Origin: Acidobacteriota bacterium
GTDB lineage: Bacteria; Acidobacteriota; UBA6911; RPQK01; JADFOI01
NCBI GenBank assembly: GCA_963663035.1
Contig: OY760074.1
Location: forward strand, 3,392,001-3,456,000
Direction: 5' to 3'
Length of the DNA stretch: 64,000 nucleotides
Part shown: piece after piece, positions 39,902 to 63,025 of the stretch
Layout: each line of letters begins with the position of its first letter
Numbering within the stretch: position 1 is the first letter of the stretch
Made by a program: the position numbers and the translations under genes
The notes under the pieces: generated by a model
The model's input: the letters and a program-made list of their open reading frames with translations, nothing else
The model's database searches: none
Told to the model about the DNA's origin: nothing

Positions 39902-39930
39902 TTGACAGAATTGCCTGTCATCCCTAAACT
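39902..39930 (+). promoter_or_regulatory. sigma70 promoter with an operator-like palindrome
   Basis: TTGACA-17-TAAACT; TGACAG-N6-CTGTCA overlaps the -35 box. Confidence 0.65.
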
Positions 39931-40047
39931 GGACCCATTGAAATCTAGGCGCAGCCGACCTTTGGCTCTCAAACTCGGATGTCGAAGACACAGACAGAAG
40001 GATCGTCTCAATTCTTTAATACTCACTTGCAGGAAAGGACGACTGAT

Positions 40048-41853
40048 ATGCCAGGAATAAAGGATCGGTGGTTTGTTTTACTCTTATCCATGAGTGCATT
40101 GCTGGTCTTGACGACAGGGCTGACCAGTTTGCAGGCAGCGACTCCTCTGGATGCGGATTGCAGTGACTATATTGGTCCCGAATTGATGGTTCATGGTAAG
40201 AGCGTCGGGCCCAAAACATGCAACATTGCTGAGGAGAAGAGTATTCAGAATGTCCAGGGTGTGCCATATCGTCGACTGGAAGTCGAGGTCAGTGGCAATA
40301 TCGCGGGTTACACGGCCAAAGCGGCTCCTCGCGTCGAGATGCTGACCGATGTCCCTGAGTTTACGGCTCAGAGGGGCAACCTGGGACCCTTTTTCCACGG
40401 CATCGGTGTCTATTACGCAGAGAAAGGGTCCGGAATGACGATCTTTATGCCGGAGTCCTCTGACGACTGGAATGGGAAGCTCTTTGTCCTGGTTCATGGC
40501 TCTGGTTCCTATGGTACCGTTGGCGATCTTGTTCCCAGAAAACCCGATCAATACAACCCCTTGATGGGAGACAACTCCTACGCCGGCCTGATGATTGACA
40601 AGGGTTATGCGGTCGCCTACACCAGCCGTCCTGCCGCGGGGGCGAGTTCTGCAGATGAGCAGGTGACTCTGGATGGTGGTGAGGTGACCCTGGATGGGAA
40701 AAGTTTTGGGTATCACTTGGGCATCATTCGAGACTGGACACAGATCGCTAAGAATCTCCTCGAATCCCAGCTCGGCCAAAAGCCTTCTCGAACCTACCTC
40801 TACGGTCATTCAGCTGGGGCAAGTATAGGACGTCTCTTTAATTATTCTCCTGGTAAGAATCTCGACGCCGATGGTGAGAAAGTCTTTGATGGAATGCTGT
40901 TGGACGATGCGGGTGGCGGATGGTATTGGCCAGTCCAGTACTTCGTGCGCACCGAAGACACCGGAGAGCAGTTTCTCCTGAAGCGAGACGATCGAGATCA
41001 CCTGCAATTTGATGAGGCCCACAAGAAGAACTTTGCTCTCCAGATTGACATTGCACACCAGGCCTATGCCGGCGCAGGATTTGTCATTGGGGAGTATCTT
41101 TCCGTCAAGCGAGAAAATGAGCGCCTTCTCCGCGAGAAGGGGTTGGGCGCACTGAGCAGAACTTACGAAATCGTCGGGGTTAGCCACGCTGATTCCGGAA
41201 GCATCTGGCCCCGCGAAACCTACACCCAAAATCTGGACTTGAGCGGACTCTATGACGCGGTGATTGATGTTCTGGATCAGTGGGTGGAAGAGGGTGTCGA
41301 GCCTGGCCCGAGCCGATCCGATGACTACCTTTTGGGTGACGTCGACGGAGACGGACAGCTCGAGAATGCAGCTGTGGCCCTGCCTGAGATCGCTTGTCCC
41401 ACGGGAGTGTATTATGAGTTTCCAGAGGGTGTCCGCAGTCCTGGTCGCACCGGCTTTGCAGCCTATCTGAGTACTCCCCAGCGTCCTCTCAATGCTGACA
41501 CCACAACGATTCCGGACGACTTTGACGAGAACTGGCTTGAGCCACTGGACAGCCGGGGATACCTTCTCGACATGAACAATAACCATGTCCGCGATACCCG
41601 GCCCAGTATCACCCAGGCTTGGCAAAGACGGGCCAGAGAGGGCAAAGAGTCTGGGACCCTGGGATTCGATGAAGCACTGACTCATCACCGCTACGTGAGC
41701 TGCGTCTCCAGGGTTGCCTCCCAGCTCTTTGAGCAAAAGCTGCTGGGCAGTAGCGCTGTACTGCATTACATCCAAACGGCCATGGATTCCGATATCGGAC
41801 GAGGGACTTCCGCTCAGGCAGGCGGTCTCGTTATTGGACATGACCCTCGTTGA
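40048..41853 (+). CDS. Exported alpha/beta-hydrolase-like protein (tannase-like N-region)
   Basis: Signal peptide; WNGKLFVLVHG, KGYAVAYT and TYLYGHSAG nucleophile elbow; FDG and VSH motifs. Confidence 0.75.
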   Translation: MPGIKDRWFVLLLSMSALLVLTTGLTSLQAATPLDADCSDYIGPELMVHGKSVGPKTCNIAEEKSIQNVQGVPYRRLEVEVSGNIAGYTAKAAPRVEMLTDVPEFTAQRGNLGPFFHGIGVYYAEKGSGMTIFMPESSDDWNGKLFVLVHGSGSYGTVGDLVPRKPDQYNPLMGDNSYAGLMIDKGYAVAYTSRPAAGASSADEQVTLDGGEVTLDGKSFGYHLGIIRDWTQIAKNLLESQLGQKPSRTYLYGHSAGASIGRLFNYSPGKNLDADGEKVFDGMLLDDAGGGWYWPVQYFVRTEDTGEQFLLKRDDRDHLQFDEAHKKNFALQIDIAHQAYAGAGFVIGEYLSVKRENERLLREKGLGALSRTYEIVGVSHADSGSIWPRETYTQNLDLSGLYDAVIDVLDQWVEEGVEPGPSRSDDYLLGDVDGDGQLENAAVALPEIACPTGVYYEFPEGVRSPGRTGFAAYLSTPQRPLNADTTTIPDDFDENWLEPLDSRGYLLDMNNNHVRDTRPSITQAWQRRAREGKESGTLGFDEALTHHRYVSCVSRVASQLFEQKLLGSSAVLHYIQTAMDSDIGRGTSAQAGGLVIGHDPR

Positions 41854-41875
41854 GACATGAAGGGAAAGTAACAGT

Positions 41876-42445
41876 ATGAAAAAGATCGTGATGGCCCTGT
41901 CACTACTAGGGCTGATGGTAGTTGTTCTCTTCTCACAGGGCCAGCCTGGCGTTAGTCTGGATCTGGGTGTGGTCATAGACTCCTTTTTCCCGGGTGATCA
42001 GGTGGGGCTACCCGTTACTCTGGTCAGCCGAAACGACGCTCAGGTTGGAGATGTCACCCTGGAGGTAGCCTTTCCGTCAAAGGTGATTTCTCTGGTTGAG
42101 GTGACCCTGGGTAGTGGGGCCACAGCGGCGGGAGCCGAGGTGAAAACAGAGGTCGTCGATGCTCCCGAAGAGGCCGCTGCCGAAGCGGAAGGGGAGGAGT
42201 CTGTGGATCTGGAACGAAAGATCCTGAGCGTGAATATCTCCGCATCCACTGCGCTGCCTGATGGTCTGTTGGCCACGCTTACCTTTGAGGTGACCGATGA
42301 GATATCAATTAACCACGAGATTCACATGGAAAATGTGAGTCAAACGGCTCTGTCCCTGGATGGACAGGAGGTACGAGCTCGCGGCATAGATGGCACCATA
42401 ACATCGATTGAGTTTATTCCTGCCTGTCTTTTCTATATGCATTGA
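41876..42445 (+). CDS. Small exported cohesin-like protein with IPACLFYMH C-terminal tail
   Basis: Signal peptide; PGDQVGLPV...LEVAF...GLLATLTFEV pattern; 11 bp upstream of an amidohydrolase ATG. Confidence 0.82.
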   Translation: MKKIVMALSLLGLMVVVLFSQGQPGVSLDLGVVIDSFFPGDQVGLPVTLVSRNDAQVGDVTLEVAFPSKVISLVEVTLGSGATAAGAEVKTEVVDAPEEAAAEAEGEESVDLERKILSVNISASTALPDGLLATLTFEVTDEISINHEIHMENVSQTALSLDGQEVRARGIDGTITSIEFIPACLFYMH

Positions 42446-42456
42446 GGAGATATCCA

Positions 42457-44184
42457 ATGAAGAGAAGTACTTGGTCTAATGGTTTGGCCCTGTTGGTCCT
42501 GGCACTTTTCTGCCTGGGCATGGGCTCCGCTTGGGCTCAGAGCCCGGCAAACTTACCCGCAGAGGTCGTTGCCTATGCGGATCTGGTTTTCCATAACGGC
42601 CAGATTCTGACCGGCGATGAGAGCTTTACGATTGTGGAAGCGGTGGCTATCCGGGACGGGAAGTTTCTGGCCCGTGGGAACAACGACAGAATCTTGTCCA
42701 TGGCCGGTCCCAGCACCCGCAGAATCGACCTGGAAGGGCAAAGTGTGGTCCCCGGCTTTATTGACACCCACTTGCATTCCGCTTTTGTCGGAAATATCGC
42801 AAAGCGTGGAACGGAGGGGAGGCTCGCATTCGAAGATGTGGCCAGTGGCTTGCAAGAGCTCCGAGAACTGGTGGCCAAGTATCCTGCCGGAAAAGACCTT
42901 TATCTGTCCGGTCCGAGCAACAGAGCCCTGCTGCTGGAAGTGACGCTGGCCCAACTGGATGCGGCGGCGCCCCGGAATGCTATCTCGATTAGCTGCCAGA
43001 ATAATCAGAACATAGTCAACAGCCTGATGTTGAAAAGGATTCCACCCGAGACCCCGGGTATCTTGAAAGACGAAAACGGTAACCCGACGGGTCAGATTCG
43101 GGGTGGGGCAGCCGGGATGGTGAAGTACGATTTCATGCCCTGGCCAGACGTGGAAGGGCTGGTCGAGCAGCAGAAGGTTGAGTTAGACCGGTATTTGGCC
43201 CAGGGACTGACCACGATCGAAGGGCGGGGTCAGGGTCTGACTATTACTATTTTCCGCGACCTGTGGAAACGTGGAGAACTGAAGCCGCGTATTCGGCTTG
43301 CTCATGAGTTCCTCCGGGAAAATGGGAGCCCGGAGGCCTACTTGAAGAGATTGGGCAACCTGACCGATTTTGGCGACGACATGCTCAGGTTCTTCGGGGC
43401 CACGGTCCAGGTGGTGGACGGCGCGGGTGGAGCAAACACAGCCGACTTTCCCAAGATCAACGTAGCTGAGAGCAGTCCTTACGACCGATACGGGCAAAAC
43501 AAGTGGGAAGAGACCGGAGATGTGGCCACCAGTGACCGCAGAAACATTATTCTGGCCAACCGCTACGGATGGACCATCACCTCCATGCACAGCGGGGGGG
43601 ACCACAGCAATGACCTGCTTCTGGAGGTCTATGAAGAAGCCCATCGGGAAAATCCCCTGACGGGCCGCCATTTTGGAATCGACCACGGAGCCATGATTCG
43701 GCCCCGACAATTGAGTCTGATGAAGGAGATGGATGTGATCCCCAGTGTCTACACGTTTCCCATCAGCCGATCCGAAGGGTACCTGGAGAGCTATGGAGCC
43801 GATGCGCTGCACCAGATGATGCCGGTCAAGAGCTTGATCGAAGCAGGTATTTACCCGGCGGCCGAGGCTGACACCCGGCCTCCCAATTCAGCACCCCTTT
43901 TCCAGATGAAAAACTTCATCACCCGCAAGGATGAAAGTGGGCGGGTGTGGAATCCGGATGAGAAGTTGAGTCGGAGGGAGGCCTTGTCTATGTATGGACT
44001 GTGGGCCGCCCGTTATACCGGGGAGGAAGACATTCTCGGTTCCATTGAAACCGGGAAGCTGGGTGACCTGGTGGTGTTGGGCGGAGATTTCATGACCTTT
44101 CCCGAAGATGAGCTGGACAAGCTTCGGGTGCTGATGACCGTCGTGGGCGGAAAAGTCGTTTACGAGGCGTCAGGAGCCTTCTAA
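42457..44184 (+). CDS. Exported YtcJ-like amidohydrolase, type A
   Basis: DTHLH, MHSGGD, IDHG and AEAD motifs; ends ASGAF. Confidence 0.93.
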   Translation: MKRSTWSNGLALLVLALFCLGMGSAWAQSPANLPAEVVAYADLVFHNGQILTGDESFTIVEAVAIRDGKFLARGNNDRILSMAGPSTRRIDLEGQSVVPGFIDTHLHSAFVGNIAKRGTEGRLAFEDVASGLQELRELVAKYPAGKDLYLSGPSNRALLLEVTLAQLDAAAPRNAISISCQNNQNIVNSLMLKRIPPETPGILKDENGNPTGQIRGGAAGMVKYDFMPWPDVEGLVEQQKVELDRYLAQGLTTIEGRGQGLTITIFRDLWKRGELKPRIRLAHEFLRENGSPEAYLKRLGNLTDFGDDMLRFFGATVQVVDGAGGANTADFPKINVAESSPYDRYGQNKWEETGDVATSDRRNIILANRYGWTITSMHSGGDHSNDLLLEVYEEAHRENPLTGRHFGIDHGAMIRPRQLSLMKEMDVIPSVYTFPISRSEGYLESYGADALHQMMPVKSLIEAGIYPAAEADTRPPNSAPLFQMKNFITRKDESGRVWNPDEKLSRREALSMYGLWAARYTGEEDILGSIETGKLGDLVVLGGDFMTFPEDELDKLRVLMTVVGGKVVYEASGAF

Positions 44185-44216
44185 TCCGGATTATGCCTAG
44201 AAAGGAAAGGATGACT

Positions 44217-45947
44217 ATGAATACCCCTAATTTCAGCTCCGTGAGTCGTGTCTTCTTCTTGTTGCTATTTTGCTTGGCGGGTTTCACTGCGGCTTGGGCT
44301 CAGAGCCCGGCAAACTTACCGGCAGAGGTCGTTGCCTATGCGGATCTGGTTTTCCATAACGGCCAGATTCTGACCGGCGATGAGAGCTTTACGATTGTGG
44401 AAGCGGTGGCTATCCGGGACGGGAAGTTTTTGGCCCGTGGGAACAACGACAGGATTTTGTCCATGGCCGGTCCCGACACCCGCAGAATCGACCTGGAAGG
44501 GCAAAGTGTGGTCCCCGGCTTTATTGATACCCACTTGCATTCCGCTTTTCTGGGAAATATCGCCAAACGTGGGACCGATGGCCGGGTTGAATTCGAAGAT
44601 GTGACCAGCGGCCTGGAAGAGCTGCGAGAACTGGTTTCGCAGTATCCAGCCGGGAAACAGCTTTATCTGGCCGGGCCGAGCAACAGAGCCCTGCTGCTGG
44701 AAGTGACGCTGGCCCAACTGGATGCGGCCGCGCCCAACAATCCCATCTCGATTAGCTGTCCCAACAATCAAAACGTGGTCAACAGCCTGCTGTTGGCAAG
44801 GATTCCAGCTGACACGCCAGGTATCTTGAAAGACGAAAACGGTAACCCGACCGGTCAACTTCGGGGTGGAGCAGCGGGTATCGTGAAGTATGAGATGATG
44901 CCCTGGCCGGATGTGGACGAGATGGTGGAGGCCCAGAAACTCGAGTTAGAGCGGTATGTGGTGCAGGGACTGACCACCATTGAAGGTCGAGGTCAGGGTC
45001 TGACCATCAGCGTTTTCCGAGACCTGAGGACGCGTGGTGAACTGGTGCCCCGGATTCGGCTTTCCTTTGAGTTTCTACGGGAAAATGGGAGCCCGGAGGC
45101 CTATTTGAAGAGACTGGGCAACCTGACGGATTTTGGCGACAACATGCTCAAATTCTTCGGGGCCACGGTTCAGGTGGTGGATGGATCAGGCGGTGCGAAC
45201 ACTGCTGACTTTCCCAAAATCAGAGTCGCGGAGAGCTCACCTTACGACCGATTTGGGCAAAACAAATGGGAAGAAACGGGTGACGTCGCCACCAGCGACC
45301 GCAGAAACATCCTGCTGGCCAACCGCTACGGCTGGACCATCACCTCCATGCACAGCCAGGGCGACCAAAGCAATGACGAGCTCCTGAAAGTGTACCAGGA
45401 AGCCCATCAGGAGAACCCCCTGAATGGTCGCCATTTTGCCATCGATCACGGGGACATGTGGCGTCCCCGCCACCTGGCCTTGCTCAAGGAAATGGAAGTG
45501 ATTCCCAGTGTTTTCACATTTCCCATCAGCCGCTCTGAAGGCTACCTGGAAACCTATGGGGCCGATGCCCTGCATCAGATGCTGCCGGTCAAAAGCCTGA
45601 TCGAAGCAGGTATCTACCCGGCTGCCGAGGCTGACACCCGGCCTCCCAATTCAGCACCCCTCTACCAGATGAAGAACTTTATTACCCGCAAGGATCCCAA
45701 TGGACGGGTGTGGAATCCGGACGAAAAGCTGTCTCGTCAGCAGGCCCTGCACATGTATGGACTGTGGGCTGCTCGCTACACCGGGGAAGAAGACATTCTC
45801 GGTTCCATTGAAAACGGGAAGCTGGCCGACCTGGTGGTACTGGGCGGAGACTTCCTGACGTTTCCCGAAGATGAGTTGGACAAGCTTCGAGTGCTGATGA
45901 CTGTCATTGACGGGAAAGTTGCCTACGAGGCGCCCGGCGCCTTCTAG
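44217..45947 (+). CDS. Exported YtcJ-like amidohydrolase, type A (close tandem paralog of the previous gene)
   Basis: DTHLH, MHSQGD, IDHG and AEAD motifs; ends APGAF. Confidence 0.93.
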   Translation: MNTPNFSSVSRVFFLLLFCLAGFTAAWAQSPANLPAEVVAYADLVFHNGQILTGDESFTIVEAVAIRDGKFLARGNNDRILSMAGPDTRRIDLEGQSVVPGFIDTHLHSAFLGNIAKRGTDGRVEFEDVTSGLEELRELVSQYPAGKQLYLAGPSNRALLLEVTLAQLDAAAPNNPISISCPNNQNVVNSLLLARIPADTPGILKDENGNPTGQLRGGAAGIVKYEMMPWPDVDEMVEAQKLELERYVVQGLTTIEGRGQGLTISVFRDLRTRGELVPRIRLSFEFLRENGSPEAYLKRLGNLTDFGDNMLKFFGATVQVVDGSGGANTADFPKIRVAESSPYDRFGQNKWEETGDVATSDRRNILLANRYGWTITSMHSQGDQSNDELLKVYQEAHQENPLNGRHFAIDHGDMWRPRHLALLKEMEVIPSVFTFPISRSEGYLETYGADALHQMLPVKSLIEAGIYPAAEADTRPPNSAPLYQMKNFITRKDPNGRVWNPDEKLSRQQALHMYGLWAARYTGEEDILGSIENGKLADLVVLGGDFLTFPEDELDKLRVLMTVIDGKVAYEAPGAF

Positions 45948-46016: not shown

Positions 46017-46044
46017 GGGCAAAAAGAGAGAGGAAAGGATGATC

Positions 46045-47796
46045 ATGCATAAGTCCCATTTCAGCTCTGCGAGTCGCGTTTTCTTCTTCTTGTTGCTGTT
46101 TGGCTGGTCGGCCCTGACTGCGGGTTGGGCACAGAGTCCGGCTAACTTACCGGCCGAGGTCATTGCCTATGCAGATATGGTGTTTTATAACGGCAAGGTT
46201 CTGACCGCCGATGAGAGCTTCACGGTTGTGGAAGCGGTAGCTGTGCGGGACGGGAAATTTCTGGCCCGTGGAAACAACGACAGGATTTTGGCCATGGCCG
46301 GTCCCGGCACCCGCAGAATCGACCTGGACGGGCGCAGCCTGGTCCCTGGCTTTATCGACACCCACCAGCACTCCTCTTTTGTGAACAGCCCGCCTTTCGG
46401 AGAGAGTAGTGAGCCTCCTGTCCAGATCAACTATGACACGCTGGAAAGCGCTTTGGAGGGACTGTTGGCAAGGGTTCAACAGGCCCAGCCCGGAGAATTC
46501 ATTGCGCTGGGTGCAACCAGTAACAGGGTTGTCACGGAAGAGTTAAACGCTGCTCTTCTGGATCAGGTTGCTCCCCAAAATCCTCTCTACATCAGAGGCC
46601 TCAATAACCAGGTCGTGGCCAACAGCCTGATCATGAAGGAAATTCCACCAGATACTCCGGGCGTTCTGAAAGACGACAAGGGGCTACCCACCGGTCAGCT
46701 CAGAGGCGGTGCAGGCGGGATTGTCGTCTACGAGCTAAGACCATGGCCCGCTGTGGAGGCTTTGTTGGAGCCTCAGAAGCTCAGATTTCTCCGACACAAT
46801 GAGCAGGGATTGACCACTATCATGGGACGTGCCAACGGCCTGTCGATCTCGGTCTTCCGTGACCTGGTGCTGCGGGACGAGTTGACGCTGAGAGTTCGTG
46901 TGGCCCATGAGTTTCTGCGTCAAAATTCATCCCCTGAAGCCTATTTGAAAAGACTGGGTAATCTGACCGATTTTGGAAACGACATGTTCAAAATCATCGC
47001 GGCCACCGTCCAGGTGGTGGATGGCGCCTCCTTGACCGGCTCAGCTCGGACCTCCAAGGCGAAGCTGACTCCTCCCTCAGGAGATCCCTATGGCCCCTTT
47101 GGTCAAAACAAATGGGAAGAAACAGGGGATTTGGCCACCAGCGACCGCAGGAACATCATCCTGGGCAATCGTTACGGCTGGTCCATATCGGGCTTACACA
47201 GCAGCGGCGACATGAGCAACACCATATTGCTGGAAGTCTTTGAAGAGGCCCACAGAGAAAGATCTCTGGTAGGCCGGCACTTTGGAATCGATCACGGCTT
47301 GATGTGGAAACCGGAGCATTTCGATCTGCTCAAGGAGATGGATATCGTTCCCAGTATTTTTTCCAAAGCGCTTTACGACAATGATGCGTTGGTATCCATC
47401 TACGGAATGGATGAGGTGTATACCATGCAGCCGGTCAAGTCCCTGATCGAAGCTGGGATCCGCCCAGCCGCAGAAGCTGACGCTTTTGATTCTCGCACCC
47501 AGGCGGCCCTGTTCAATATGCAGAAGTGGATCACCAGGCTGGACGACCAAGGTCGCCTGGTGAATCCGGACGAGAAGATCGATCGCCGCGAAGCCCTCTA
47601 CATGTATACCCTTTGGGCCGCTCGTTACAGCGGAGAGCAGGATCTTCTGGGTTCCATTGAGCCCGGCAAGTTGGCCGATCTCGTGGTGCTGGGAGGGGAC
47701 TTTATGACCTTCCCCGAAAACGATCTGGACAAACTTCGGGTGTTGATGACCGTGGTGGGAGGCCGGGTGGTCCACGAAGCCTCGGGAGCTTTTTGA
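46045..47796 (+). CDS. Exported YtcJ-like amidohydrolase, type A
   Basis: DTHQH, GLHSSGD, IDHG and AEAD motifs; ends ASGAF. Confidence 0.93.
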   Translation: MHKSHFSSASRVFFFLLLFGWSALTAGWAQSPANLPAEVIAYADMVFYNGKVLTADESFTVVEAVAVRDGKFLARGNNDRILAMAGPGTRRIDLDGRSLVPGFIDTHQHSSFVNSPPFGESSEPPVQINYDTLESALEGLLARVQQAQPGEFIALGATSNRVVTEELNAALLDQVAPQNPLYIRGLNNQVVANSLIMKEIPPDTPGVLKDDKGLPTGQLRGGAGGIVVYELRPWPAVEALLEPQKLRFLRHNEQGLTTIMGRANGLSISVFRDLVLRDELTLRVRVAHEFLRQNSSPEAYLKRLGNLTDFGNDMFKIIAATVQVVDGASLTGSARTSKAKLTPPSGDPYGPFGQNKWEETGDLATSDRRNIILGNRYGWSISGLHSSGDMSNTILLEVFEEAHRERSLVGRHFGIDHGLMWKPEHFDLLKEMDIVPSIFSKALYDNDALVSIYGMDEVYTMQPVKSLIEAGIRPAAEADAFDSRTQAALFNMQKWITRLDDQGRLVNPDEKIDRREALYMYTLWAARYSGEQDLLGSIEPGKLADLVVLGGDFMTFPENDLDKLRVLMTVVGGRVVHEASGAF

Positions 47797-47845
47797 GATT
47801 TGCCGAGAGGCCAACCCGCGCTATGTCTTGAAGACCGTGAGTTGG

Positions 47846-52216: not shown

Positions 52217-52304
52217 CAAGTCAGTCGTGGCTCAGCCGCACAACAAGGTTTCACAGAAAGGAGGAGGTGCACCCGAAGGTCGGTCTTTGAGTGTGTCCAC
52301 CATC

Positions 52305-54623: not shown

Positions 54624-54902
54624 ATGGCAGGGAAGCGGTTTAGGGCAGAACAGATCATCATGAAGCTGCGTGAGGCAGAGGTGGGTCTGGCCCAAGGACA
54701 GAGGGTGGGACAGGTGTCGAAGCAGATGGGGGTGAGCGAGCAGACCTACTACCGGTGGCGCAAAGAGTACGGAGGGCTCCGGTTGGACCAGGCCAAGAGG
54801 TTGAAGGTGTTGGAGAAGGAGAATACCCGGTTGAAGAAGCTGGTGGCGGATCTGTCTTTGGACAAGCAGATCCTGAAGGAAGTGTCCTCGGGAAACTTCT
54901 AG
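54624..54902 (+). CDS. IS3 transposase OrfA
   Basis: HTH ([16 protein letters not shown]) plus leucine zipper. Confidence 0.93.
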
Positions 54903-55795
54903 GCCCGGCGAACAGGAGACGAGCGGTGATGTGGGTACGAGAGCGATTAGGAGCAGAGCGAGTCTCCGAACGTCGGGCCTGCCAAGTGCTGGGACAGGTT
55001 CGATCGACCCAGCGAAGGGAAAGGCAAATTCCCGATGATGAGGCCCGATTGGTGGCCCGGATGGTGGAGTTGGCTACGCAATACGGGCGTTATGGCTACC
55101 GGCGGGTCACGGCGATACTTCATGGGGAAGGGTGGAAGGTGAATCCTAAGCGGGTGGAGAGGCTGTGGAGACAAGAAGGGCTGAAAGTCCCGTCCAGACA
55201 GCCGAAACGAAGGAGGCTGTGGCTTAATGACGGTTCCTGTGTTCGGTTACGAGCGGCTCGCAAGAACCACGTCTGGAGCTATGATTTCGTGCATGAACGG
55301 ACCCATGATGGGCGAGCCTTTCGGCTATTGACGATCCTGGATGAGTACACCAGAGAGTGCCTCGCCATTGATGTGAAACGGCAGATGAATCACCAAGACG
55401 TGTTGGACCGGCTGGCGGAGTTATTCGTTGATCGGGGAGTGCCTGAGTTTATCCGGTCCGATAACGGATCGGAGTTTACGGCACAGGCGGTCCGGGACTG
55501 GCTGCAGGCTGTTGGGGTAAGGACCTTGTACATCGAGCCGGGCAGCCCCTGGGAGAATGGGTACATTGAGAGTTTCAACGGGAAACTACGGGATGAGCTG
55601 CTGAACATGGAGATCTTCGACACGCTGGGGGAAGCCAAGGTGTTGGTAGAACGCTGGCGGAGGGATTACAATCAGATCCGGCCTCACAGCGCCTTGGCCT
55701 ATCGGCCGCCGGCGCCAGAGGCCAAACTACCTAGGTCGCAGGCACTGGATCCAATCCCTTGGAGTGGACTTCAAATGGTCCCGGGTCTAGCATAG
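54890..55795 (+). CDS. IS3 transposase OrfB (via -1 frameshift at GGGAAAC)
   Basis: [13 protein letters not shown] and [13 protein letters not shown] motifs; slippery heptamer at 54890-54896. Confidence 0.92.
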
Positions 55796-56010
55796 AGGGT
55801 GGACTCGTTCGTGGGGGCAGGTCAGGACGGGCCCATTTCTTTGTTGCTTCTCCTCGCCGATGTCCCTGACATCGACTCGTCGTCGCGCCTCGATCTGGGC
55901 TCCGTCGCGCTCCCAACAAACGCTATCGTATTTATCTAAGTGAGTACTAGGCTACGTCGAGGATCGAAGGGCGCGGAGAACGAAGATATTGAGCTCCCTG
56001 GACAGCCGCC

Positions 56011-57483
56011 CTAGAGGATTGGGGCGAAGAGTATGTGCACGACTGTAACAAGCACCATGATCAGTATCGTGGCCACCGATCCCACCTTGATCATCTCTTT
56101 CATGTCAAGATAGCCGGAGGCGAAGGCCGTACCCGCAGATGCTCCTGCCCAGGGGAATAATACCCCCACGGCTGCATTGGGGATAAGGATGGCCATACTG
56201 GCAGGATTGAAGCCAATCTCTGCGGCCGTGGGGATAAAGATACTGCAAAAGAGAGTCGAGGCAGCTGTTCCTGAAAAGAGATTGGTCCCCACCACCGTAA
56301 CCCCGGCAGCCAGGAAGGGCAATCCCGTTATCCCGATGCCCAACCCCCCGATCACGCCATCTGTAAACTCCAGGAATCCAAATTGGCTGAGAGCGTCGGT
56401 CATGGCCACCGCACCCGTACACAGAAAGATGATGTTCCAGGGTGCGTGCTCGACAACGTCACGCCAGATCAAAGTTCCTTCCCCCTTTTGAACATTCACG
56501 GGAAGAAGGAAAAGCAGGAACAGAACTGCCGGCGGTACCAACCAGGTGGGCACAGCGCTGCGCACGTAAGTGGCCGTAGGATGATCCGCCCCCAGAGCCA
56601 GAGAGAGCAGTGAGGGTCCTGTGAACAACAGTACCATGGTCACGAAACTCACAAGCACATTGATTTCTCCGACCGTCATCTTTCCCAGTTTCTTGACTTC
56701 ACCCTCAACAAAGTCCCGCCCTCCTGGAATCGTGGAAATTTCCGGAGGGAAAAAATAGCGGAGCAGAAAATAAAAGCTGACCAGCAAGACCACGAAGAGC
56801 GGTACTCCCACCTTCATCCACCGGAACCACCCGATATAGGTGTCAGCCAGACTCTCAGCCAGAGAGACACCGATAGCGTTATGAGGGAGACCGGCTATGG
56901 TCGCCACCCCCCCGGCCACGGCTCCATAAAGCGTCCCTAAGGCCAGAAACGAAGCCAGTCGACTTTTCTGGCCAGCCTCCGGAGCAATACCAGTGACTCC
57001 GCTGATGTAGGCAAAGAGTGACATTCCGATTGGCATCATCATCCCCACCACCCCAACATCGGCAATGAACATGGAGAGGAGAGCGACCACCAACATATAC
57101 ATAAACGTCAGCATAGCTGTGCTGTTGGCTACGCCTTTCAGTGTCAGGAATCTGAGGGCCACTCGCTTGGCTAGCCCGTGCTTTTCAAGGGCATAGCCGA
57201 GCATGGTGATTCCCAGGATCCAAAAGAAGATCCTTTGGCCATAAAGAGCAGTCGTCGCACGGATAGACATCACACCCAGAACCGGGAACACCACAAGAGG
57301 GAGCAGGGAAGAGATACCCCAGGGGATGGGTCGTGCCATCCACCAGGCAACACACCAAACGAAGGTGGCGAAGGCGACCCGGCCATTGTAGGGCAGTCCC
57401 TCTAAAGGTGCAGCGTAAATCAGAAGAAACGCTGCTGGCCCAACTGCCAGTTTGGCGAAGAAATTCATGTGCCTGGGTGTCAT
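56011..57483 (-). CDS. SLC13/DASS-family transporter
   Basis: Paralog of 29732-31186 and 59565-61037. Confidence 0.9.
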   Translation of the reverse strand: MTPRHMNFFAKLAVGPAAFLLIYAAPLEGLPYNGRVAFATFVWCVAWWMARPIPWGISSLLPLVVFPVLGVMSIRATTALYGQRIFFWILGITMLGYALEKHGLAKRVALRFLTLKGVANSTAMLTFMYMLVVALLSMFIADVGVVGMMMPIGMSLFAYISGVTGIAPEAGQKSRLASFLALGTLYGAVAGGVATIAGLPHNAIGVSLAESLADTYIGWFRWMKVGVPLFVVLLVSFYFLLRYFFPPEISTIPGGRDFVEGEVKKLGKMTVGEINVLVSFVTMVLLFTGPSLLSLALGADHPTATYVRSAVPTWLVPPAVLFLLFLLPVNVQKGEGTLIWRDVVEHAPWNIIFLCTGAVAMTDALSQFGFLEFTDGVIGGLGIGITGLPFLAAGVTVVGTNLFSGTAASTLFCSIFIPTAAEIGFNPASMAILIPNAAVGVLFPWAGASAGTAFASGYLDMKEMIKVGSVATILIMVLVTVVHILFAPIL

Positions 57484-57620: not shown

Positions 57621-57707
57621 AGCGGCATTCTATCAACTATTCTCGAAGACGCCTCAGGAGCGTAAGGACAGGGAAAGTCCGATACTTTGGCACCAAAAAA
57701 GGGAGGA

Positions 57708-59468
57708 ATGATGAAACAGCAAACTTGGAATGACCTTCACCGCTTGTTTTTATTGTTGTGTCTTGGCGCAACGGTGGGCAGTGGCTGGGCTCAAAGCGCC
57801 CAGAGCCTGCCGCCTGAAGTCGTTGCCTATGCGGATATAGTCTTTTACAACGGCAAGATCCTCACCGCAGATGAGCAGTTCACAATTGTAGAGGCGGTGG
57901 CCATTCGAGGCGACAAATTCCTGGCGGTGGGAGATAACCAGAGAATTCTGGCCATGGCCGGGCCCCAAACCCGACGAGTGGACCTGGAGCAGCGAAGCGT
58001 GGTCCCGGGCTTTATGGATACCCACCTGCATTCCGCCTGGGTGACCCGTGTGCGCCGGGCGACGGGAGACGCGGCCACACCCTTTACTGGACCGGAGTTG
58101 AATTTCGACACCCTGGAGAGCGCCCTGGAGAGCCTACGGGCCCGGGTTGAAGCGACCCCTCCGGGAGAGGTTATTTCGCTGAGCGGACCCAGCAACCCAG
58201 TGGTGAATCACCAGCTCAACGTCACTCTTCTGGATGAGATTGCTCCCGACAATATGCTCTGGATCGAGGCCATGAATGACCAGATTGTGGCCAATAGCCT
58301 GGTCCTGGAGAAGGTTCCTACCGATATTCCGGGCATCGTCAGAGACGAGCAGGGTCGGATGACAGGCCACCTCAGAGGAGCAGCTGCCGGCGTTCCCACC
58401 TATGAGCTGCAGCCGTGGGCGAAGGTCGAGGACTTACTGGAACCTCAAAAAGAGGAATTTCTCCGCCACAATGCGATGGGACTCACGACCTTGATGGGGC
58501 GTGCCGGCGGTCTGTCGGTTACGGTCTTCCGGGATCTGATGGTGAAAGATGAACTGACCATGAGAGTTCGTATCCACCACCACTTCCTGCGCCAGAATGG
58601 GTATGCGGAGGCTTACCTGAAGAGGTTGGGTAATCTGACCGACCTGGGAAACGACATGTTCAAGATCATCGGGACGTCGGTCCAGGTGGTGGATGGCACC
58701 TCCAACAACGGGTCGGCTAACACCAGTCAAGCCAAAATAAAGATCCTCGACATAGATCCGTACGGACCTTTCGGCATGAACAAGTGGGAAGAGAGCGGTG
58801 ATCTGGCTACCAGTGACCGGCAAAGCATCATCCTGGCCAATCGTTACGGCTGGTCGATCGGTTCTCTGCACAGCAGCGGCGACATGAGCAACACCATACT
58901 GCTGGAAGTTTTTGAAGAGGCCCATCGTGAGAGGTCTCTGGTGGGCCGTCACTTTGGGATAGACCACGGCATGATGTGGAGGCCGGAGCATTATGCCCTG
59001 GTCAAGGAGATGGACGTGATCCCCAGTGTCTATGCCAAGGCCATGTACGGCAATGATAACTTGGTTGAAATGTACGGAATGGACGCCGTTTACAATATGC
59101 AGCCGGTCAAATCCATGATCGAGGCAGGAATCAGGCCGGCGGCGGAAGCCGACGCTTTTGATGCTCGCACCAGGCCACCTCTCTTTAACATCATGAAATG
59201 GGTGACCCGGATAGACGACAGGGGCCGGCAGCTGAATCCGGCTGAGAAAGTGAGTCGGGAGGAGGCCCTTTACATGTACACTCTGTGGGCTGCCGCCTAC
59301 AGTGGGGAAGAGGACATCCTGGGTTCCATCGAGCCCGGAAAGCTGGCCGATCTGGTAGTGCTGGCTGGAGACTACCTGACCTTTCCCGAGACTGAGTTGG
59401 ACAAACTTCGGGTCTTGATGACCGTTATGGGAGGCCAGGTCGTCCACGAGGCCTCCGGCGCCTTCTAG
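57708..59468 (+). CDS. Exported YtcJ-like amidohydrolase, type A
   Basis: DTHLH, SLHSSGD, IDHG and AEAD motifs; ends ASGAF. Confidence 0.93.
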   Translation: MMKQQTWNDLHRLFLLLCLGATVGSGWAQSAQSLPPEVVAYADIVFYNGKILTADEQFTIVEAVAIRGDKFLAVGDNQRILAMAGPQTRRVDLEQRSVVPGFMDTHLHSAWVTRVRRATGDAATPFTGPELNFDTLESALESLRARVEATPPGEVISLSGPSNPVVNHQLNVTLLDEIAPDNMLWIEAMNDQIVANSLVLEKVPTDIPGIVRDEQGRMTGHLRGAAAGVPTYELQPWAKVEDLLEPQKEEFLRHNAMGLTTLMGRAGGLSVTVFRDLMVKDELTMRVRIHHHFLRQNGYAEAYLKRLGNLTDLGNDMFKIIGTSVQVVDGTSNNGSANTSQAKIKILDIDPYGPFGMNKWEESGDLATSDRQSIILANRYGWSIGSLHSSGDMSNTILLEVFEEAHRERSLVGRHFGIDHGMMWRPEHYALVKEMDVIPSVYAKAMYGNDNLVEMYGMDAVYNMQPVKSMIEAGIRPAAEADAFDARTRPPLFNIMKWVTRIDDRGRQLNPAEKVSREEALYMYTLWAAAYSGEEDILGSIEPGKLADLVVLAGDYLTFPETELDKLRVLMTVMGGQVVHEASGAF

Positions 59469-59553: not shown

Positions 59554-59564
59554 GCAAGGACCCC

Positions 59565-61037
59565 CTAGAGAATGGGAGCCATCAGCAGGTGGACCCCGAG
59601 AATGATCACAAGGATGAGTAGCGTGGCGACCGCTCCGACCTTCATCATTACCTTCAGGTCCAGATAGCCGGAAGCAAAGGCCGTACCTGCGGATGCCCCG
59701 GCCCAGGGAAACATTATTCCCACGGCACCGTTGGGAATGAGTATGGCTATGCTGGCGGGGTTGTAACCAAACTCCACGGCGGCGGGAATGAAGATACTGC
59801 AAAAGAGAGTCGTGGCAGCCGTACCCGAGAAGAGGTTGGTACCCACGATGATCGCTGGAGCGGCAATGAAGGGCAGCCCTGTCGCACTGATGCCTATACT
59901 CTGAATGATGCCCGAGGTGTAGTCCAGGAACCCGAACTGGGTGAGAGCATCGGTCATGCCCACCGCCCCCGTACACAGGAAGATGATGTTCCAGGGTGCG
60001 TGATGGGAAACGTCACGCCAGATCAAGGTGCCTTCGCCCTTCTTCACATCTACGGGCAGGAGGAAAAGCAGGATAAGGACTGCTGGAGGGACTACCCAGG
60101 TCGGTAGAGCATTGCGCAGGTACTCGGCCACAGGATGTCCTTCCCCCAGAATCAGAGACATGATGGAGGGACCCGTGAACATCAGCACCATGCAGACGAA
60201 GGTCACCAGCACATTGATCTCTCCGGTCGTCATCTTGCCCAGTTTCTGGAGTTCCTTCCCGATAAACTCCCGGCCCCCCGGGATACGAGAAACTTCGGGA
60301 GGAAAGAAAAATCGGAGTAAAAGATAAAAGCTGATGAGCAAGATAACAAAGAGCGGCATCCCCACTTTCATCCAGCGGAACCAGCTGATATAGGTTCCAG
60401 CCAGACTATCGGCCAGGGCCACTCCGATGGCGTTGTGGGGCAGACCCGCAATGGTCCCCACTCCCCCTGCCACCGCTCCGTAAAGTGTCCCCATGGCCAG
60501 AAAAGAAGCCAGTCGGCTGTTCTTGCCCTCCTCCCCACCGAGATCGGTGACACTGCTGATGTAGGCCACCAGAGACATCCCGATCGGCATCATCATGGCC
60601 ACCACCCCGGCATCGGTGACGAACATGGATATGATTGCGGCCACCAACATATACATGAAGATCAGGCGAGACGTGCTGTCGGCCACTCCTTTGATTTTCA
60701 GGAATCTCAGGGCAACCCGCTTGGCCAGTCCATGCTTCTCAATGGCATAGCCGAGCATGGTAATTCCCAGAAGCCAAAAGAAAATTCTTTGGCCATAAAG
60801 AGCAGTGGTGGCACGGATCGACATCACGCCCAGGACGGGAAACACCACAAGCGGCAGCATCGAAGACATGGCCCAGGGGATGGGCCGGGTCATCCACCAG
60901 ACAACAGCCCAAACAAGGGTGGCCAGGGCTACTCGACAGTTATAGGAAACCCCTTCCAGGGGTAAGAGATAGGTGATCAGGAAGGCTGCGGGCCCGGACG
61001 CCAGTTTTGCCAGCGCGTTTAAGCGAGTTGTCGGCAT
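59565..61037 (-). CDS. SLC13/DASS-family transporter
   Basis: Paralog of the other two; directly downstream of a type B amidohydrolase. Confidence 0.9.
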   Translation of the reverse strand: MPTTRLNALAKLASGPAAFLITYLLPLEGVSYNCRVALATLVWAVVWWMTRPIPWAMSSMLPLVVFPVLGVMSIRATTALYGQRIFFWLLGITMLGYAIEKHGLAKRVALRFLKIKGVADSTSRLIFMYMLVAAIISMFVTDAGVVAMMMPIGMSLVAYISSVTDLGGEEGKNSRLASFLAMGTLYGAVAGGVGTIAGLPHNAIGVALADSLAGTYISWFRWMKVGMPLFVILLISFYLLLRFFFPPEVSRIPGGREFIGKELQKLGKMTTGEINVLVTFVCMVLMFTGPSIMSLILGEGHPVAEYLRNALPTWVVPPAVLILLFLLPVDVKKGEGTLIWRDVSHHAPWNIIFLCTGAVGMTDALTQFGFLDYTSGIIQSIGISATGLPFIAAPAIIVGTNLFSGTAATTLFCSIFIPAAVEFGYNPASIAILIPNGAVGIMFPWAGASAGTAFASGYLDLKVMMKVGAVATLLILVIILGVHLLMAPIL

Positions 61038-61078
61038 TAGTTTGATTTATAACTTAAGCTGCCAGGTGGCAGAGAAAT

Positions 61079-63025
61079 TTAATTGCCGCTTTCTCCCAGG
61101 TATTGAGCTGCCACTTCCTCATCTGAAAAATCGTAGGCAGGTCCCACCGCTTCCATGCCAAACTCGTTTGCCAGGGATTCCTGCAGCTGGATAATCTTGC
61201 CGCCTACCATGGTCATGGGAGTGCGGACCTTCAAGATGTCATTCACGGGAACGGTAAAGTAGTCACGATCCAGGATGACCAGATCTGCGAACTTGCCCTC
61301 TTCCAGCGTGCCGAGCTCGTCTTCCTTCAGGACGTATTCAGCTGGCCAGGATGTCCACATTTTCATGGCATGCACCCGGTCAATACGTTCTTCGGGCTGC
61401 CAGACGACCCCATCATGTAGGCGAGTTACTGCCTGCCACAGTGTCCTCATGGGTGGTGTTCGCCCATAATGCTGGCCCACCAGCTTCACACCGGAGTCAA
61501 GCCAGGTCTTGAAGGGCAGGATAAAGGACTGGATTTGATCGCCGTAGTCGCGAACCCAGGCAGGTGATTCTGAGACGATGTCGGGTCCGCAGCTCAAGAT
61601 GATTCCATAATCCTTCAATCCCTGTATGATATCCGGGAGTTTTCCGATCAGACCGCAGTGCTCGCCTGTCAGCCTCATGTCACGCACCTGCTGCATCGTC
61701 CAGCCGTTGACTTCGCGGGCCTCATCGATCATCCGCATGAAGGCTCGCGCGCTTTCGCTGCCGCACATGTGCACTCCCGCCAGCCGCCAGCCGGCGGCGG
61801 CTGCGTTTTCAAGTGTGTCCCAAGGCAGTTCCCCGGGTACCGGGCAGACTTCTCGAGACTTGATATTGGCTGGAGCGATGGTATCCGGTCCGGTGCACGA
61901 TTCCGGGTAAAACGAGTCCCAACGCTCTGAGGCCACGCCGTCAATCCACAGGTAATCGTCTCCAATTCCCTGCAGCACACCGGTACGGCGATAGATCTGA
62001 CGGGTTTGCTGGGGATCGGTGGGCATACGGTGGATCTCGTAGTGGGCAGATAACCGAATGGGCATTTGACCCAGACCGGCCAGGGTGGCATACCCGCTCA
62101 TGATCTTGGGGAACTGAATACGGCTGGAAAAGGTGGTGATTCCCTTGGTGGCGGCATCTTCCGACACCAGTTTGATGGCCTGGGCCAGAGTGGGCAGAGG
62201 GACTTTTTCCAGAAAAAGCTGCCAGGTGATCACGGACATTTCCTGGCTTCCCACCCATCCGATTTCGGCAATGTCCTCACCGATGACGTCCCCGTGCATG
62301 GTTTCGTGGATGGAGGCGGAATATCCAGGGAAAAAGTCATCCAGGATCTCCAAGGCCTTGGAATTGACGTTGCCTCTCAACCCGGGCCTCATCAGGACCG
62401 GGTTGTCGGGGGCCCACTGATCGAGAGTTCTGCGGTTTGTCAGGCGTCGAGTCATGCTCCAGAGGGCGAGTTGGCGGGGATTTTCATCAGGATGACTCTG
62501 CATACTGAGGACTATCCAGTCACCCGGGTTGACCTCCTTGACCGCATCCTGGAGGGCATCGCGCAGAAGGCCCTGGGTTTGTTCCAGGTCGGTGGGGTGC
62601 GCCTGAGCTGACGTAAAGTAAACTCCCTCGGGCGGGTACTTGAAGCCCAATCGATCCAGATGCTGTACGGCACTGCCGTACATGTGGCTGTGGCTCTCAA
62701 TAATGCCGGGAATCAGGGTTTTTCCTCTCAAGTCGAAAATCACGGTGTCGGGACCTGCCACGGCCCTCACCTGAGCGGTGGTGCCCAGCTTCATGATCTT
62801 GTGGCCCTTGACCGCAATGGCCTGATAGATGGTCCCCACGCTGGTTGAGCGGGAGATATCGTCCATGCTCACCACCTTCCCGTTGACAAAGATGCTGTCA
62901 GCGTAACCCTGTTGGGCCACCTCGGGAGCCAGCTGAGCCAACGAGTTGGTAGCCTGGAAGAGAAAAAGTATGCTCAGGCTCAGGGAAAGAGCAAAGAACC
63001 TGAGAGCCCATTGATCGATTCTCAT
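61079..63025 (-). CDS. Exported YtcJ-like amidohydrolase, type B (Cys-rich)
   Basis: ESHSH, HMCG, EHC, GQHYG and GTLEEGKFADL motifs. Confidence 0.92.
   Translation of the reverse strand: MRIDQWALRFFALSLSLSILFLFQATNSLAQLAPEVAQQGYADSIFVNGKVVSMDDISRSTSVGTIYQAIAVKGHKIMKLGTTAQVRAVAGPDTVIFDLRGKTLIPGIIESHSHMYGSAVQHLDRLGFKYPPEGVYFTSAQAHPTDLEQTQGLLRDALQDAVKEVNPGDWIVLSMQSHPDENPRQLALWSMTRRLTNRRTLDQWAPDNPVLMRPGLRGNVNSKALEILDDFFPGYSASIHETMHGDVIGEDIAEIGWVGSQEMSVITWQLFLEKVPLPTLAQAIKLVSEDAATKGITTFSSRIQFPKIMSGYATLAGLGQMPIRLSAHYEIHRMPTDPQQTRQIYRRTGVLQGIGDDYLWIDGVASERWDSFYPESCTGPDTIAPANIKSREVCPVPGELPWDTLENAAAAGWRLAGVHMCGSESARAFMRMIDEAREVNGWTMQQVRDMRLTGEHCGLIGKLPDIIQGLKDYGIILSCGPDIVSESPAWVRDYGDQIQSFILPFKTWLDSGVKLVGQHYGRTPPMRTLWQAVTRLHDGVVWQPEERIDRVHAMKMWTSWPAEYVLKEDELGTLEEGKFADLVILDRDYFTVPVNDILKVRTPMTMVGGKIIQLQESLANEFGMEAVGPAYDFSDEEVAAQYLGESGN

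Follow-up and report, generated by a model that had tools for sequence, protein, structure and literature searches.

In Bacteroidota, polysaccharide utilization loci (PULs) of the SusC/SusD type combine, in one locus, exported hydrolases with an outer-membrane protein and a carrier of the inner membrane, and many diversified paralogous loci occur in one genome. The same logic was found in a 64-kb stretch of DNA (hereafter the window; contig OY760074.1, C1:3392001–3456000) of the single-contig, 3,595-kb genome of an Acidobacteriota bacterium (G000). In this window, exported amidohydrolases of the Amidohydro_3 family are encoded together with DASS anion:sodium symporters, a small exported protein with a cohesin fold and an invariant C-terminal end (the cohesin-tail protein), and DUF5916 proteins that are predicted to be outer-membrane barrels. 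Coordinates below count within the window unless they are prefixed by C1. The locus differs from the PULs in that its barrel is of the DUF5916 type and is not a fixed member, and in that its substrates would be amides, not glycans. None of the PUL hallmarks Plug, TonB_dep_Rec, and SusD was found among the 14 proteins encoded at 39979–63682 (E up to 0.001), and neither was a glycoside hydrolase or a regulator family; the PUL test reported only amidohydrolases, an alpha/beta hydrolase, DASS carriers, and a transposase. The analogy with PULs does not go beyond this shared logic.

A working precedent for exported Amidohydro_3 enzymes that release an anionic acid may be seen, by analogy, in Bilophila wadsworthia. 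According to a preprint, its BwBSH1/2 are Sec-exported Amidohydro_3 enzymes that hydrolyze the N-acyl amide of conjugated bile salts extracellularly (bioRxiv 10.64898/2026.04.05.716592). BwBSH1/2 are like the window enzymes in their Amidohydro_3/YtcJ-like domain, Sec signal peptide, and paralogous copies, but they are 945 amino acids (aa) long, carry extra C-terminal regions, and are encoded beside a type II secretion system, whereas the open reading frames (ORFs) in the window encode 571–715 aa; the two are likened by domain, not by sequence. A bile-salt substrate is not expected in the source organism. Cellulosomal and non-cellulosomal cohesins (PDB 1g1k, 3ul4, and 2xdh) are protein-binding modules with the same beta-sandwich as the cohesin-tail protein, which differs from them in that it is exported as one module on its own, ends in an invariant C-x-x-[YF]-x-H, and has an amidohydrolase body as its predicted partner. 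DASS/SLC13 carriers (TIGR00785; bacterial dicarboxylate:sodium symporters) take di- and tricarboxylates or sulfate. UreE is a small cytoplasmic urease accessory protein with a metal-binding C-terminal tail, encoded beside its amidohydrolase-superfamily enzyme; its fold differs from that of the cohesin-tail protein, and it provides an analogy only, for one possible role of the tail. Proteins that combine PF19313 (DUF5916) with PF06452 (CBM9_1) have the same two-domain build as the three DUF5916 proteins of the window, and no paper bearing the name DUF5916 was returned by the literature search. The arrangement here and in G002, a genome of the same genus, differs from those in that two copies lie inside an amidohydrolase operon.

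On balance, the region is probably a duplication-built catabolic island for what would be anionic compounds with amide, perhaps also ester, bonds. As judged from the comparison of related genomes, its conserved core appears to be an amidohydrolase, a DASS carrier, a class II aldolase, and the cohesin-tail protein. Eight of the 59 full-length amidohydrolases and three of the five DASS genes of the genome are found in these 64 of 3,595 kb, a clustering that exceeds chance. A first-pass annotation, made from the sequence alone, had described 39902–63025 as a module of one hydrolase, one cohesin-tail protein, amidohydrolases, DUF5916 barrels, and DASS carriers. This gene content was confirmed, with small corrections, by translations from the ORF listing and by Pfam scans of the 14 proteins mentioned above, and the functional interpretation attached to it was partly supported, as described below.

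Eight plus-strand genes form one block with intergenic gaps of −4 to approximately 140 nucleotides (nt). It begins with a secreted serine alpha/beta hydrolase of the tannase/Abhydrolase_10-like type (40048–41853, with the ORF open from 39979), followed by the cohesin-tail gene (41876–42445; 189 aa, ending in ...PACLFYMH) and three amidohydrolase genes, namely AH1 (42442–44184; YtcJ-like Amidohydro_3, Pfam E 1.8e-53), its recent tandem duplicate AH2 (44193–45947), and AH3 (46039–47796). Two genes for CBM9-like plus DUF5916 proteins (DUF1, 47828–50008, and DUF2, 50008–52164) and a further amidohydrolase gene, AH4 (52188–54335), complete the block. By eye, the block products carry Sec-type N-termini, in which a hydrophobic core lies between a basic n-region and an AxA-type site, and no NCBIfam model scored above its cut-off for any of them. 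Downstream of the block, DASS1 (56011–57483, minus strand) is divergent from AH5 (57687–59468, plus strand), which in turn is convergent with DASS2 (59565–61037, minus strand); DASS2 lies 42 nt downstream of AH6 (61079–63025, minus strand). The class II aldolase/adducin-family gene (39069–39773, minus strand) is divergent from the operon on its other side.

The conservation of this arrangement was analyzed in 30 relatives, among which one unpublished genome (G017) supports no claim. The fullest core was observed in G012, a genome of another genus, in which the hydrolase (60% identity), a 2-hydroxyacid dehydrogenase, and the aldolase lie on one strand; on the divergent side are a cohesin-tail gene, an AH4-like gene (80%), and an AH5-like gene (76%) that is convergent with a DASS gene (69%), followed by an HbpS-like gene. 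Reduced versions of this core were found in G003, G004, and G005. The matching loci of these four genomes contain amidohydrolase, DASS, and aldolase genes; the cohesin-tail gene is present in most of them and DUF5916 in none. Aldolase orthologues of 69–75% identity lie beside amidohydrolases in G004, G005, and G012, the convergent pair of an AH5-like gene and DASS is kept in G003, G004, G012, and G014, and G009 and G013 hold amidohydrolase/DASS pairs of the same layout (amidohydrolase type not assigned). Within the genus, G002 keeps the cohesin-tail gene (75%), one amidohydrolase (91% to AH2), AH3 (93%), DUF1 (92%), DUF2 (93%), and AH4 (88%). The expectation that the families co-occur beyond this genome was borne out within the family of the source organism (f1) for the amidohydrolase, DASS, aldolase, and cohesin-tail genes, but not for DUF5916, which is not a conserved member.

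The DASS proteins scored 140–161 bits against PF00939 (cut-off 27; DASS1, Na_sulph_symp E 1.1e-40), and both Na_sulph_symp and CitMHS matches were well above their cut-offs. Against TIGR00785, the scores of 163.8 (DASS1) and 177.3 were below the cut-off of 198.6, which places the window proteins in the superfamily but outside that curated subfamily model. The three DASS genes of the window are 66–75% identical, and each adjoins a type B amidohydrolase gene (types are defined below). Orthologues (E up to 1e-60) were detected in 11 of the 14 other f1 genomes and in one of 16 genomes of other families; the clade is found almost only in f1 among the relatives searched. At 17 DASS loci outside the genome, examined with 1.5-kb flanks, an amidohydrolase was present in seven, a cohesin-tail gene in five, and DUF5916 in two. 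Six of the 17 had none of these partners; five of these are more distant DASS copies and one lies on a short contig. The carriers and their neighbors (the aldolase, the 2-hydroxyacid dehydrogenase, thiamine pyrophosphate (TPP) enzymes, and the HbpS-like protein) suggest carboxylate products, which the DASS carriers would take up.

Genome-wide family counts were made with hidden Markov models (HMMs) built from the window's own proteins and gave 59 amidohydrolases of this type and 29 DUF5916 proteins, all of full length, as well as five DASS genes; whole-genome Pfam searches gave 90 Amidohydro_3 and 30 DUF5916 matches. The 59 amidohydrolases fall into 12 clusters at 40% identity, with a median nearest-paralogue identity of 74%. 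All eight window proteins matched Amidohydro_3 (PF07969) with 103–191 bits against a cut-off of 29.7. Type A comprises the protein encoded at 17570, AH1, AH2, AH3, and AH5 (mutual identity 57–84%), type B comprises AH4, AH6, and the remnant at 29019 (55–60%; 60% between AH4 and AH6), and the protein encoded at 20390 (type C) is approximately 25% identical to the other window amidohydrolases. Four His residues (H110, H112, H383, and H415 in AH1) do not vary among 18 paralogues, and in the sequence alignment the type B proteins read differently at the position expected for the metal-ligand Asp of strand 8. Signal peptides had been claimed in the first-pass annotation for seven closely spaced genes of the block, and export-type N-termini were indeed visible by eye; a crude export-signal rule flagged 45 of the 59 amidohydrolases, compared with 545 of the 2,194 genes of at least 200 aa, and it misses genes with upstream-extended ORFs such as AH4. 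Amidohydrolase and DUF5916 genes abound in f1, whereas most other families of the order have few of them. The other six genomes of the genus gave 9–26 DUF5916 matches each and 10–27 matches each to the AH2 protein (E up to 1e-30, with the best 43 candidates scored). The relatives are not independent, and this co-expansion is therefore a description, not a test. The nearest public homologues carry labels that point to Acidobacteriota. Nothing relevant on amidohydrolase expansion in Acidobacteriota was found in the literature among the matches listed.

The serine hydrolase at the head of the block matched Abhydrolase_10 (E 2e-8) and, weakly, Tannase, and its translation contains a G-H-S-A-G elbow. 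Its likely true start is the ATG at 40048, which lies 3′ of the GGAAAGGA stretch. The genome contains four copies of this gene, each with an amidohydrolase no more than 10 kb away. A sequence search of known structures returned no solved relative.

The cohesin-tail protein was analyzed by structure prediction. Its Cohesin (PF00963) match was weak (E 7.7e-4; 20.1 bits, under the cut-off of 24.1). Its AlphaFold2 model had a predicted local distance difference test score (pLDDT) of 84, and the best 50 Foldseek rows were nearly all cohesin modules, with E values down to 3e-10 and target TM scores of 0.6–0.79. At the level of the model, these results confirm that the protein has a cohesin jelly-roll fold. 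Nine cohesin-like genes were found in the genome by HMM and a tenth by its tail. The extreme C-terminus reads C[FL]F[YF][ML]H in every copy, and the rest of the protein has diverged, with no conserved stretch of 7–10 columns in the alignment. Gene order was tested on a rough list of 3,227 genes with 2,000 block-shuffled orders. An amidohydrolase adjoins five of the seven cohesin-tail runs in the genome, a value reached by none of the shuffles, and the usual position of the cohesin-tail gene is just downstream of the amidohydrolase. A PEP-CTERM- or sortase-type signal was considered for the tail and rejected, as the motif consists of the six terminal residues and no hydrophobic helix or basic cluster follows.

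The association was also observed in other metagenome-assembled genomes. The DNA pattern of the tail with its stop codon was scanned in one genome per species, which gave at least 80 loci, and 49 of them served as the sample; a locus was kept if its ORF matched the cohesin-tail HMM and ended in the tail, and 27 chance matches from unrelated phyla were dropped. Among the matches listed, an amidohydrolase was present within 2 kb in 31 of the 49 distinct loci, and most of the 49 were labeled Acidobacteria or Acidobacteriota, some “uncultured bacterium”, and one Binatia. None of the 27 chance-match loci, which lack a cohesin-tail ORF, had an amidohydrolase nearby. A profile search of 1.84 billion representatives yielded 850 proteins with E values of 0.001 or lower, 303 of them at 1e-10 or lower. 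Among the best 150 matches, 133 were at most 300 aa long, and 110 of these 133 ended in the strict C[FL]F[YF][ML]H motif; most other short representatives had a C-x-x-[YF]-x-H end or were fragments. The remaining 17 were long multi-cohesin proteins, which have no tail.

A complex of AH1 (residues 34–580) and the cohesin-tail protein (residues 22–189) was predicted with an ipSAE interface score of 0.84 (median of three runs), whereas the controls reached 0.00 as the best of three. Of 157 solved complexes, 116 attained a score of 0.84, as did two of 215 mismatched pairs, a calibration that holds only roughly here, since own alignments were used. The runs shared at least 83% of contacts, and the pLDDT of the cohesin-tail partner was at least 85. 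Confident contacts fall into two groups, which on the cohesin-tail side comprise the tail (181–185) and an invariant loop (128–131). On the AH1 side, they involve residues 98–100, 119, 127, 156, 158, 186, 246–254, 328, 478–481, 547–564, and 576–579. Several of these positions come after the HxH motif and the subsequent invariant His residues in sequence, and from these residue lists, not from coordinates, we infer that the partner sits at the catalytic face of AH1. The model supports binding between AH1 and the cohesin-tail protein. The Cys...His tail could deliver a metal, cap the active site, or tune substrate access. The cohesin-tail protein is a tighter amidohydrolase partner than the DUF5916 barrels, and the tightest one found. 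No paper on this protein was found in the searchable literature, which does not cover subscription journals and was not searched for the motif itself; the protein is apparently an undescribed conserved partner of exported amidohydrolases.

The DUF5916 proteins were assigned to PF19313 with 73.4, 75.5, and 44.8 bits (cut-off 22.6), and the sequence score of their CBM9_1 domain was near or just under its cut-off. The AlphaFold2 model of the protein encoded at 50008 (34 sequences; pLDDT 84, predicted TM score 0.81) shows a beta-sandwich at residues ~28–230 that matched CBM9 (VIA-align Z 19.4 to 1i82, with a root-mean-square deviation (rmsd) of 2.9 over 177 aligned residues, and Z 20.0 to 4jpq). 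Residues ~240–718 form roughly two dozen long antiparallel strands. This part matched SlpA (Z 17.3, but with an rmsd of 12.7), MtrB (15.8), the P-pilus usher (15.3), and TonB-dependent transporters (approximately 15), and Foldseek returned Occ porins, LptD, and FimD (E 1e-7 to 1e-8). A low-confidence loop at 286–350 carries the invariant FPEKRDFFLEN motif of the family, and the chain ends in ...LLPF, with a C-terminal Phe. DUF5916 is thus predicted to be a large outer-membrane barrel with a signal peptide and a terminal aromatic residue, in agreement with the membrane barrel proposed in the first-pass annotation.

The same annotation had proposed a complete route of outer-membrane entry, periplasmic conversion, and inner-membrane uptake, similar to a PUL, with DUF5916 as the dedicated entry channel and an integral part. 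The predicted barrel speaks for such a route. Both DUF5916 genes are embedded in the operon (intergenic gaps of 31, −1, and 24 nt), this arrangement is kept in G002, and the layout of three amidohydrolase genes followed by two DUF5916 genes recurs at C1:180–191 kb. An amidohydrolase adjoins four of the 27 DUF5916 runs in the genome against a null of 0.70, and 11 of the 2,000 shuffles reached four; in G005, four of 15 DUF5916 runs have an amidohydrolase no farther than 2 kb away, where roughly 0.8 would be expected. In G001, also of the same genus, a DASS gene (70–71% to DASS2) is followed after a few nt by a same-strand DUF5916 gene twice (on the short contigs G001:C190 and G001:C137), the only direct pairing of these two families found, and both DUF5916 and the amidohydrolases are expanded in the same genomes. 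On the other side, the expansion in related genomes is not independent evidence, the core loci of G003, G004, G005, and G012 are without DUF5916, the excess in G012 is slight (three of 15 runs within 2 kb against approximately 1.9 expected), and neither a TonB-dependent nor a SusD-type protein occurs among the 14 scanned proteins. The 78 DUF5916 loci analyzed elsewhere, which span Acidobacteriota, Gemmatimonadota, Gammaproteobacteria, Bacteroidota, and Poribacteria, include only two with this amidohydrolase type within 10 kb (at least 150 bits), six more with weak generic amidohydrolase matches of 27–43 bits, and one DASS match, also weak. The neighbors of the other DUF5916 genes in the genome are mixed as well. 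Among them are an amidase with an alpha/beta hydrolase, a tannase and an asparaginase, and two M19 dipeptidases; other neighbors are a nucleoside transporter, TRAP and Opp parts, and a TonB-dependent receptor, along with Ser/Thr kinases and numerous insertion sequence (IS) copies. The proposed PUL-type architecture was not found, and a role of DUF5916 as a fixed channel component was not supported; we regard the integral-channel explanation as rather doubtful. The absence of DUF5916 from the matching loci and its rare pairing elsewhere instead point to repeated recruitment of DUF5916, not to a fixed module component.

It was also considered whether the barrels work outward and serve as a translocon or anchor through which the amidohydrolases and the cohesin module reach the cell surface, in the manner of ushers, Slam, or type II systems. 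The large barrel with its conserved internal loop (~286–350, with FPEKRDFFLEN) and N-terminal soluble domain would suit this role, the fold neighbors include ushers, LptD, and MtrB, and cohesins typically serve in display. According to the preprint, the Amidohydro_3 enzymes that hydrolyze bile salts in Bilophila are released to the medium (bioRxiv 10.64898/2026.04.05.716592). However, most DUF5916 genes have no hydrolase neighbor, none of the 27 DUF5916 runs has a cohesin-tail gene within two genes, and no Dockerin family was detected in the 14 scanned neighboring proteins at E up to 0.001. An outward role is very improbable.

Several side observations concern the surroundings of DUF5916 genes. 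Genes for large Ser/Thr kinases that carry TPR or PD40 beta-propeller domains adjoin DUF5916 or amidohydrolase genes at three places (C1:376405–381455, 1378355–1380766, and 1654355–1657045), and the kinases are possible regulators of these envelope loci. A second IS family, with a 464-aa DDE_Tnp_1_4 transposase and near-identical Pfam scores, is found one to three genes from DUF5916 at five places (C1:99978–101372, 381508–382902, 1097181–1098575, 1895498–1896892, and 3209611–3211005), and a 346-aa IS3 transposase lies within one to three genes of DUF5916 at several more. At C1:2600570–2606274, a DUF5916 gene is split by an IS3 copy (approximately 2603310–2604578) into a 174-aa ORF (2602787–2603311) and a 577-aa ORF (2604541–2606274), and it adjoins an intact 723-aa copy and two M19 dipeptidase genes. 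The last 3.4 kb of the contig (C1:3591127–3594565) repeat in inverted order the genes of C1:252668–261388 (EF-hand, 285-aa, and Vgb_lyase-like proteins, with identical Pfam scores). The copy at the contig end terminates in a DUF5916 fragment, and the other copy lies beside the DUF5916 gene at 256 kb; the repeat reflects a large inverted duplication or else an artefact of assembly at the contig end.

The gene list of the first-pass annotation was incomplete between 54335 and 56011, where an IS3-type insertion within a repeat had been missed. The 1,268-bp element (54557–55824) contains a plus-strand transposase gene (54755–55795) of the rve-type DDE kind (rve, rve_3, and HTH_21) and belongs to the IS3 family by these features and by its approximately 45 further full-length copies, which are 99.2–100% identical (all but one at least 99.8%); this near-identity indicates very recent activity. 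It splits a repeat of approximately 400 bp (54343–54557 and 55825–56013, together 54343–56013) that is found uninterrupted elsewhere. Roughly 15 copies of that repeat exist at 88–98% identity, for example at G000:C1:480131–480528. Another intergenic repeat of 120–185 bp occurs at 28545–28685 and 25127–25312, with about a dozen copies elsewhere at 71–85%, several of them upstream of expanded-family genes. RNA-library contigs of two runs (X1 and X2) skip 54402–55950, which indicates that some related genomes lack the IS together with part of the repeat and that the insertion is hence polymorphic.

A further explanation is that no functional unit exists beyond the amidohydrolase/DASS pairs and that the block is a by-product of a genome rich in paralogues and mobile elements, in which duplication and rearrangement would have joined the genes with no selection for a shared function. 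The near-identical IS copies, the second IS family, and the several repeat families fit a by-product, as do the tandem duplicates AH1/AH2 (84% protein and 85% DNA identity, with a single gene at that place in G002) and DUF1/DUF2 (79% protein identity), the gene remnants, the operon make-up that varies among close relatives, and a 5-kb distance test of DUF5916 against amidohydrolases that was not significant (six of 22 clusters against a null of 3.0; shuffle fraction 0.074). The same-strand intergenic gaps are nevertheless very short, the block is kept at 88–93% protein identity in G002 (75% for the cohesin-tail protein), and the aldolase/amidohydrolase/DASS/cohesin-tail core recurs in two genera. 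RNA-library contigs also bridge junctions within the block, and a complex is predicted between the products of adjacent genes. An origin of the block as a mere by-product is accordingly considered quite unlikely.

Diversification by gene birth and death, as proposed earlier, was visible in part. The same families do recur at 17570, 20390, 24126–24847, 29019–31186, and 36871, as had been noted, and the eight intact amidohydrolases are all full length, but the “three broken” paralogs were three pieces of two decayed genes (24126–24847 and 29019–29618). The recent duplicates, these remnants, and the many IS copies speak for turnover. Conversely, orthologues of AH3, AH4, and AH5 in other species and genera are 76–93% identical (AH3, 82–91% in G004 and G003; AH4, 80–88% in G002, G005, and G012), while the three are 26–68% identical to each other, which indicates that most paralogues are old. 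Diversification thus appears, from these identities, to be mostly ancient retention with a few recent events.

Transcription was examined in promoter scans and in metatranscriptome assemblies. The promoter proposed at 39902 corresponds to a TTGACA-17-TAAACT sequence (39902–39930, plus strand; 10 of 12 matches) in the gap that separates the divergent aldolase and hydrolase genes. The sequence is present, but TTGACA-17-type sites were no commoner in the scan than in shuffles (nine against a mean of 8.6), and the site is only compatible with a promoter. A second promoter-like sequence, TTGACA-17-TACACT, lies at 52188–52216, just before AH4. The probable AH4 start is up to approximately 140 nt behind the second DUF5916 gene, and AH4 may have its own promoter. 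The terminator scan found no terminator-like site in the gaps between the plus-strand genes. In four metatranscriptome runs of one study, contigs of 99–100% identity cover the hydrolase, cohesin-tail, AH1, AH2, AH5, and IS sequences and run across three junctions (hydrolase/cohesin-tail, cohesin-tail/AH1, and AH1/AH2), a pattern that fits co-transcription of the genes at the start of the block. The co-expression anticipated for the whole block was followed only as far as these three junctions: the two DUF5916 genes had no contig over most of their length, apart from slight depth in one bin of one run, and AH4 was sparsely covered. Contigs drop rare transcripts, so this thin cover says nothing on expression.

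Other genes of the window belong to the same families or lie between them. An HbpS/GlcG-like gene (63140–63682, plus strand) next to AH6 is a conserved DASS neighbor in G012 and G014. A third CBM9 plus DUF5916 gene (about 36871–39045, plus strand) encodes a protein 33–36% identical to the pair in the block. On the plus strand, a C-terminal remnant of a type B amidohydrolase (29019–29618) is followed by DASS 0 (29696–31186), and on the minus strand, the other remnant consists of two pieces (24359–24847 and 24126–24452) with an internal deletion. The type C amidohydrolase gene (20390–22294, minus strand) is followed after 13 nt by a second cohesin-tail gene (19811–20377), and a type A gene lies at 17570–19285 on the plus strand. 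Additional C–N hydrolases and proteins of acid metabolism are encoded between the amidohydrolase groups (23010–24056 on the minus strand, 25384–27237, 27719–28540, and 31304–35628), namely an asparaginase, a creatininase-family protein, a FAD_binding_2 flavoprotein, and two TPP enzymes. The asparaginase of the window has a paralogue two genes away from a DUF5916 gene, at C1:1103613–1104653.

In the catabolic island that we favor, the Sec-exported serine hydrolase and several exported amidohydrolases would cleave their substrates outside the cytoplasm. Some of the amidohydrolases may work in complex with the cohesin-fold protein, whose Cys...His tail at the enzyme would act as a maturation factor, cap, or regulator. 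The DASS sodium/anion symporters would then take up the carboxylate products, and cytoplasmic neighbors (the class II aldolase, the 2-hydroxyacid dehydrogenase, the TPP enzymes, and the HbpS-like protein) would process them. The two DUF5916 barrels would be a facultative, lineage-specific addition that most likely passes solutes across the outer membrane.

Several points weigh against this explanation. The genome-wide gene lists were compiled by crude ORF picking instead of with a gene caller. By sequence, the amidohydrolases appear to be far from any characterized enzyme; the closest solved relatives, both remote, are 3icj (an uncharacterized hydrolase, E 8e-9) and molinate hydrolase (E 3e-6). 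The score of the predicted complex expresses model confidence only and was obtained on shallow alignments of our own (18 and 15 rows). With approximately ten cohesin-tail genes for 59 amidohydrolases, most enzymes do without this partner, which is therefore not a general requirement. The RNA evidence consists of assembled contigs, which give no levels and may include DNA carry-over. The proximity of DUF5916 to amidohydrolases is a minority pattern, as 23 of the 27 runs in the genome have no adjoining amidohydrolase; the share is likewise a minority in G005, the excess in G012 is small, and the 5-kb distance test was not significant.

A bolder version of the catabolic island is put forward tentatively, and we hold it with considerable doubt. 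It sees a hitherto undescribed “amide utilization” system in Acidobacteriota of family f1, in which dozens of exported YtcJ-like enzymes would mine organic matter for amide-bound carbon and nitrogen. The cohesin tail would sit at the catalytic face as a metal-delivering maturation factor or a cysteine-switch-like cap that serves subsets of the enzymes, and the DUF5916 barrels would be substrate-specific ports diversified in step with them.

By a rough gene count, approximately one in 50 genes of this genome is a paralogous amidohydrolase, most of them with an export-type N-terminus. The cohesin-tail family, which has a predicted complex and counts no fewer than 303 representative clusters (E up to 1e-10), is open to simple biochemistry. 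For DUF5916, which comprises thousands of unstudied outer-membrane proteins, the locus provides a context that is testable, though not general. Amide-bound organic nitrogen is a large and poorly understood pool, and this lineage is a promising place to seek enzymes that act on it.

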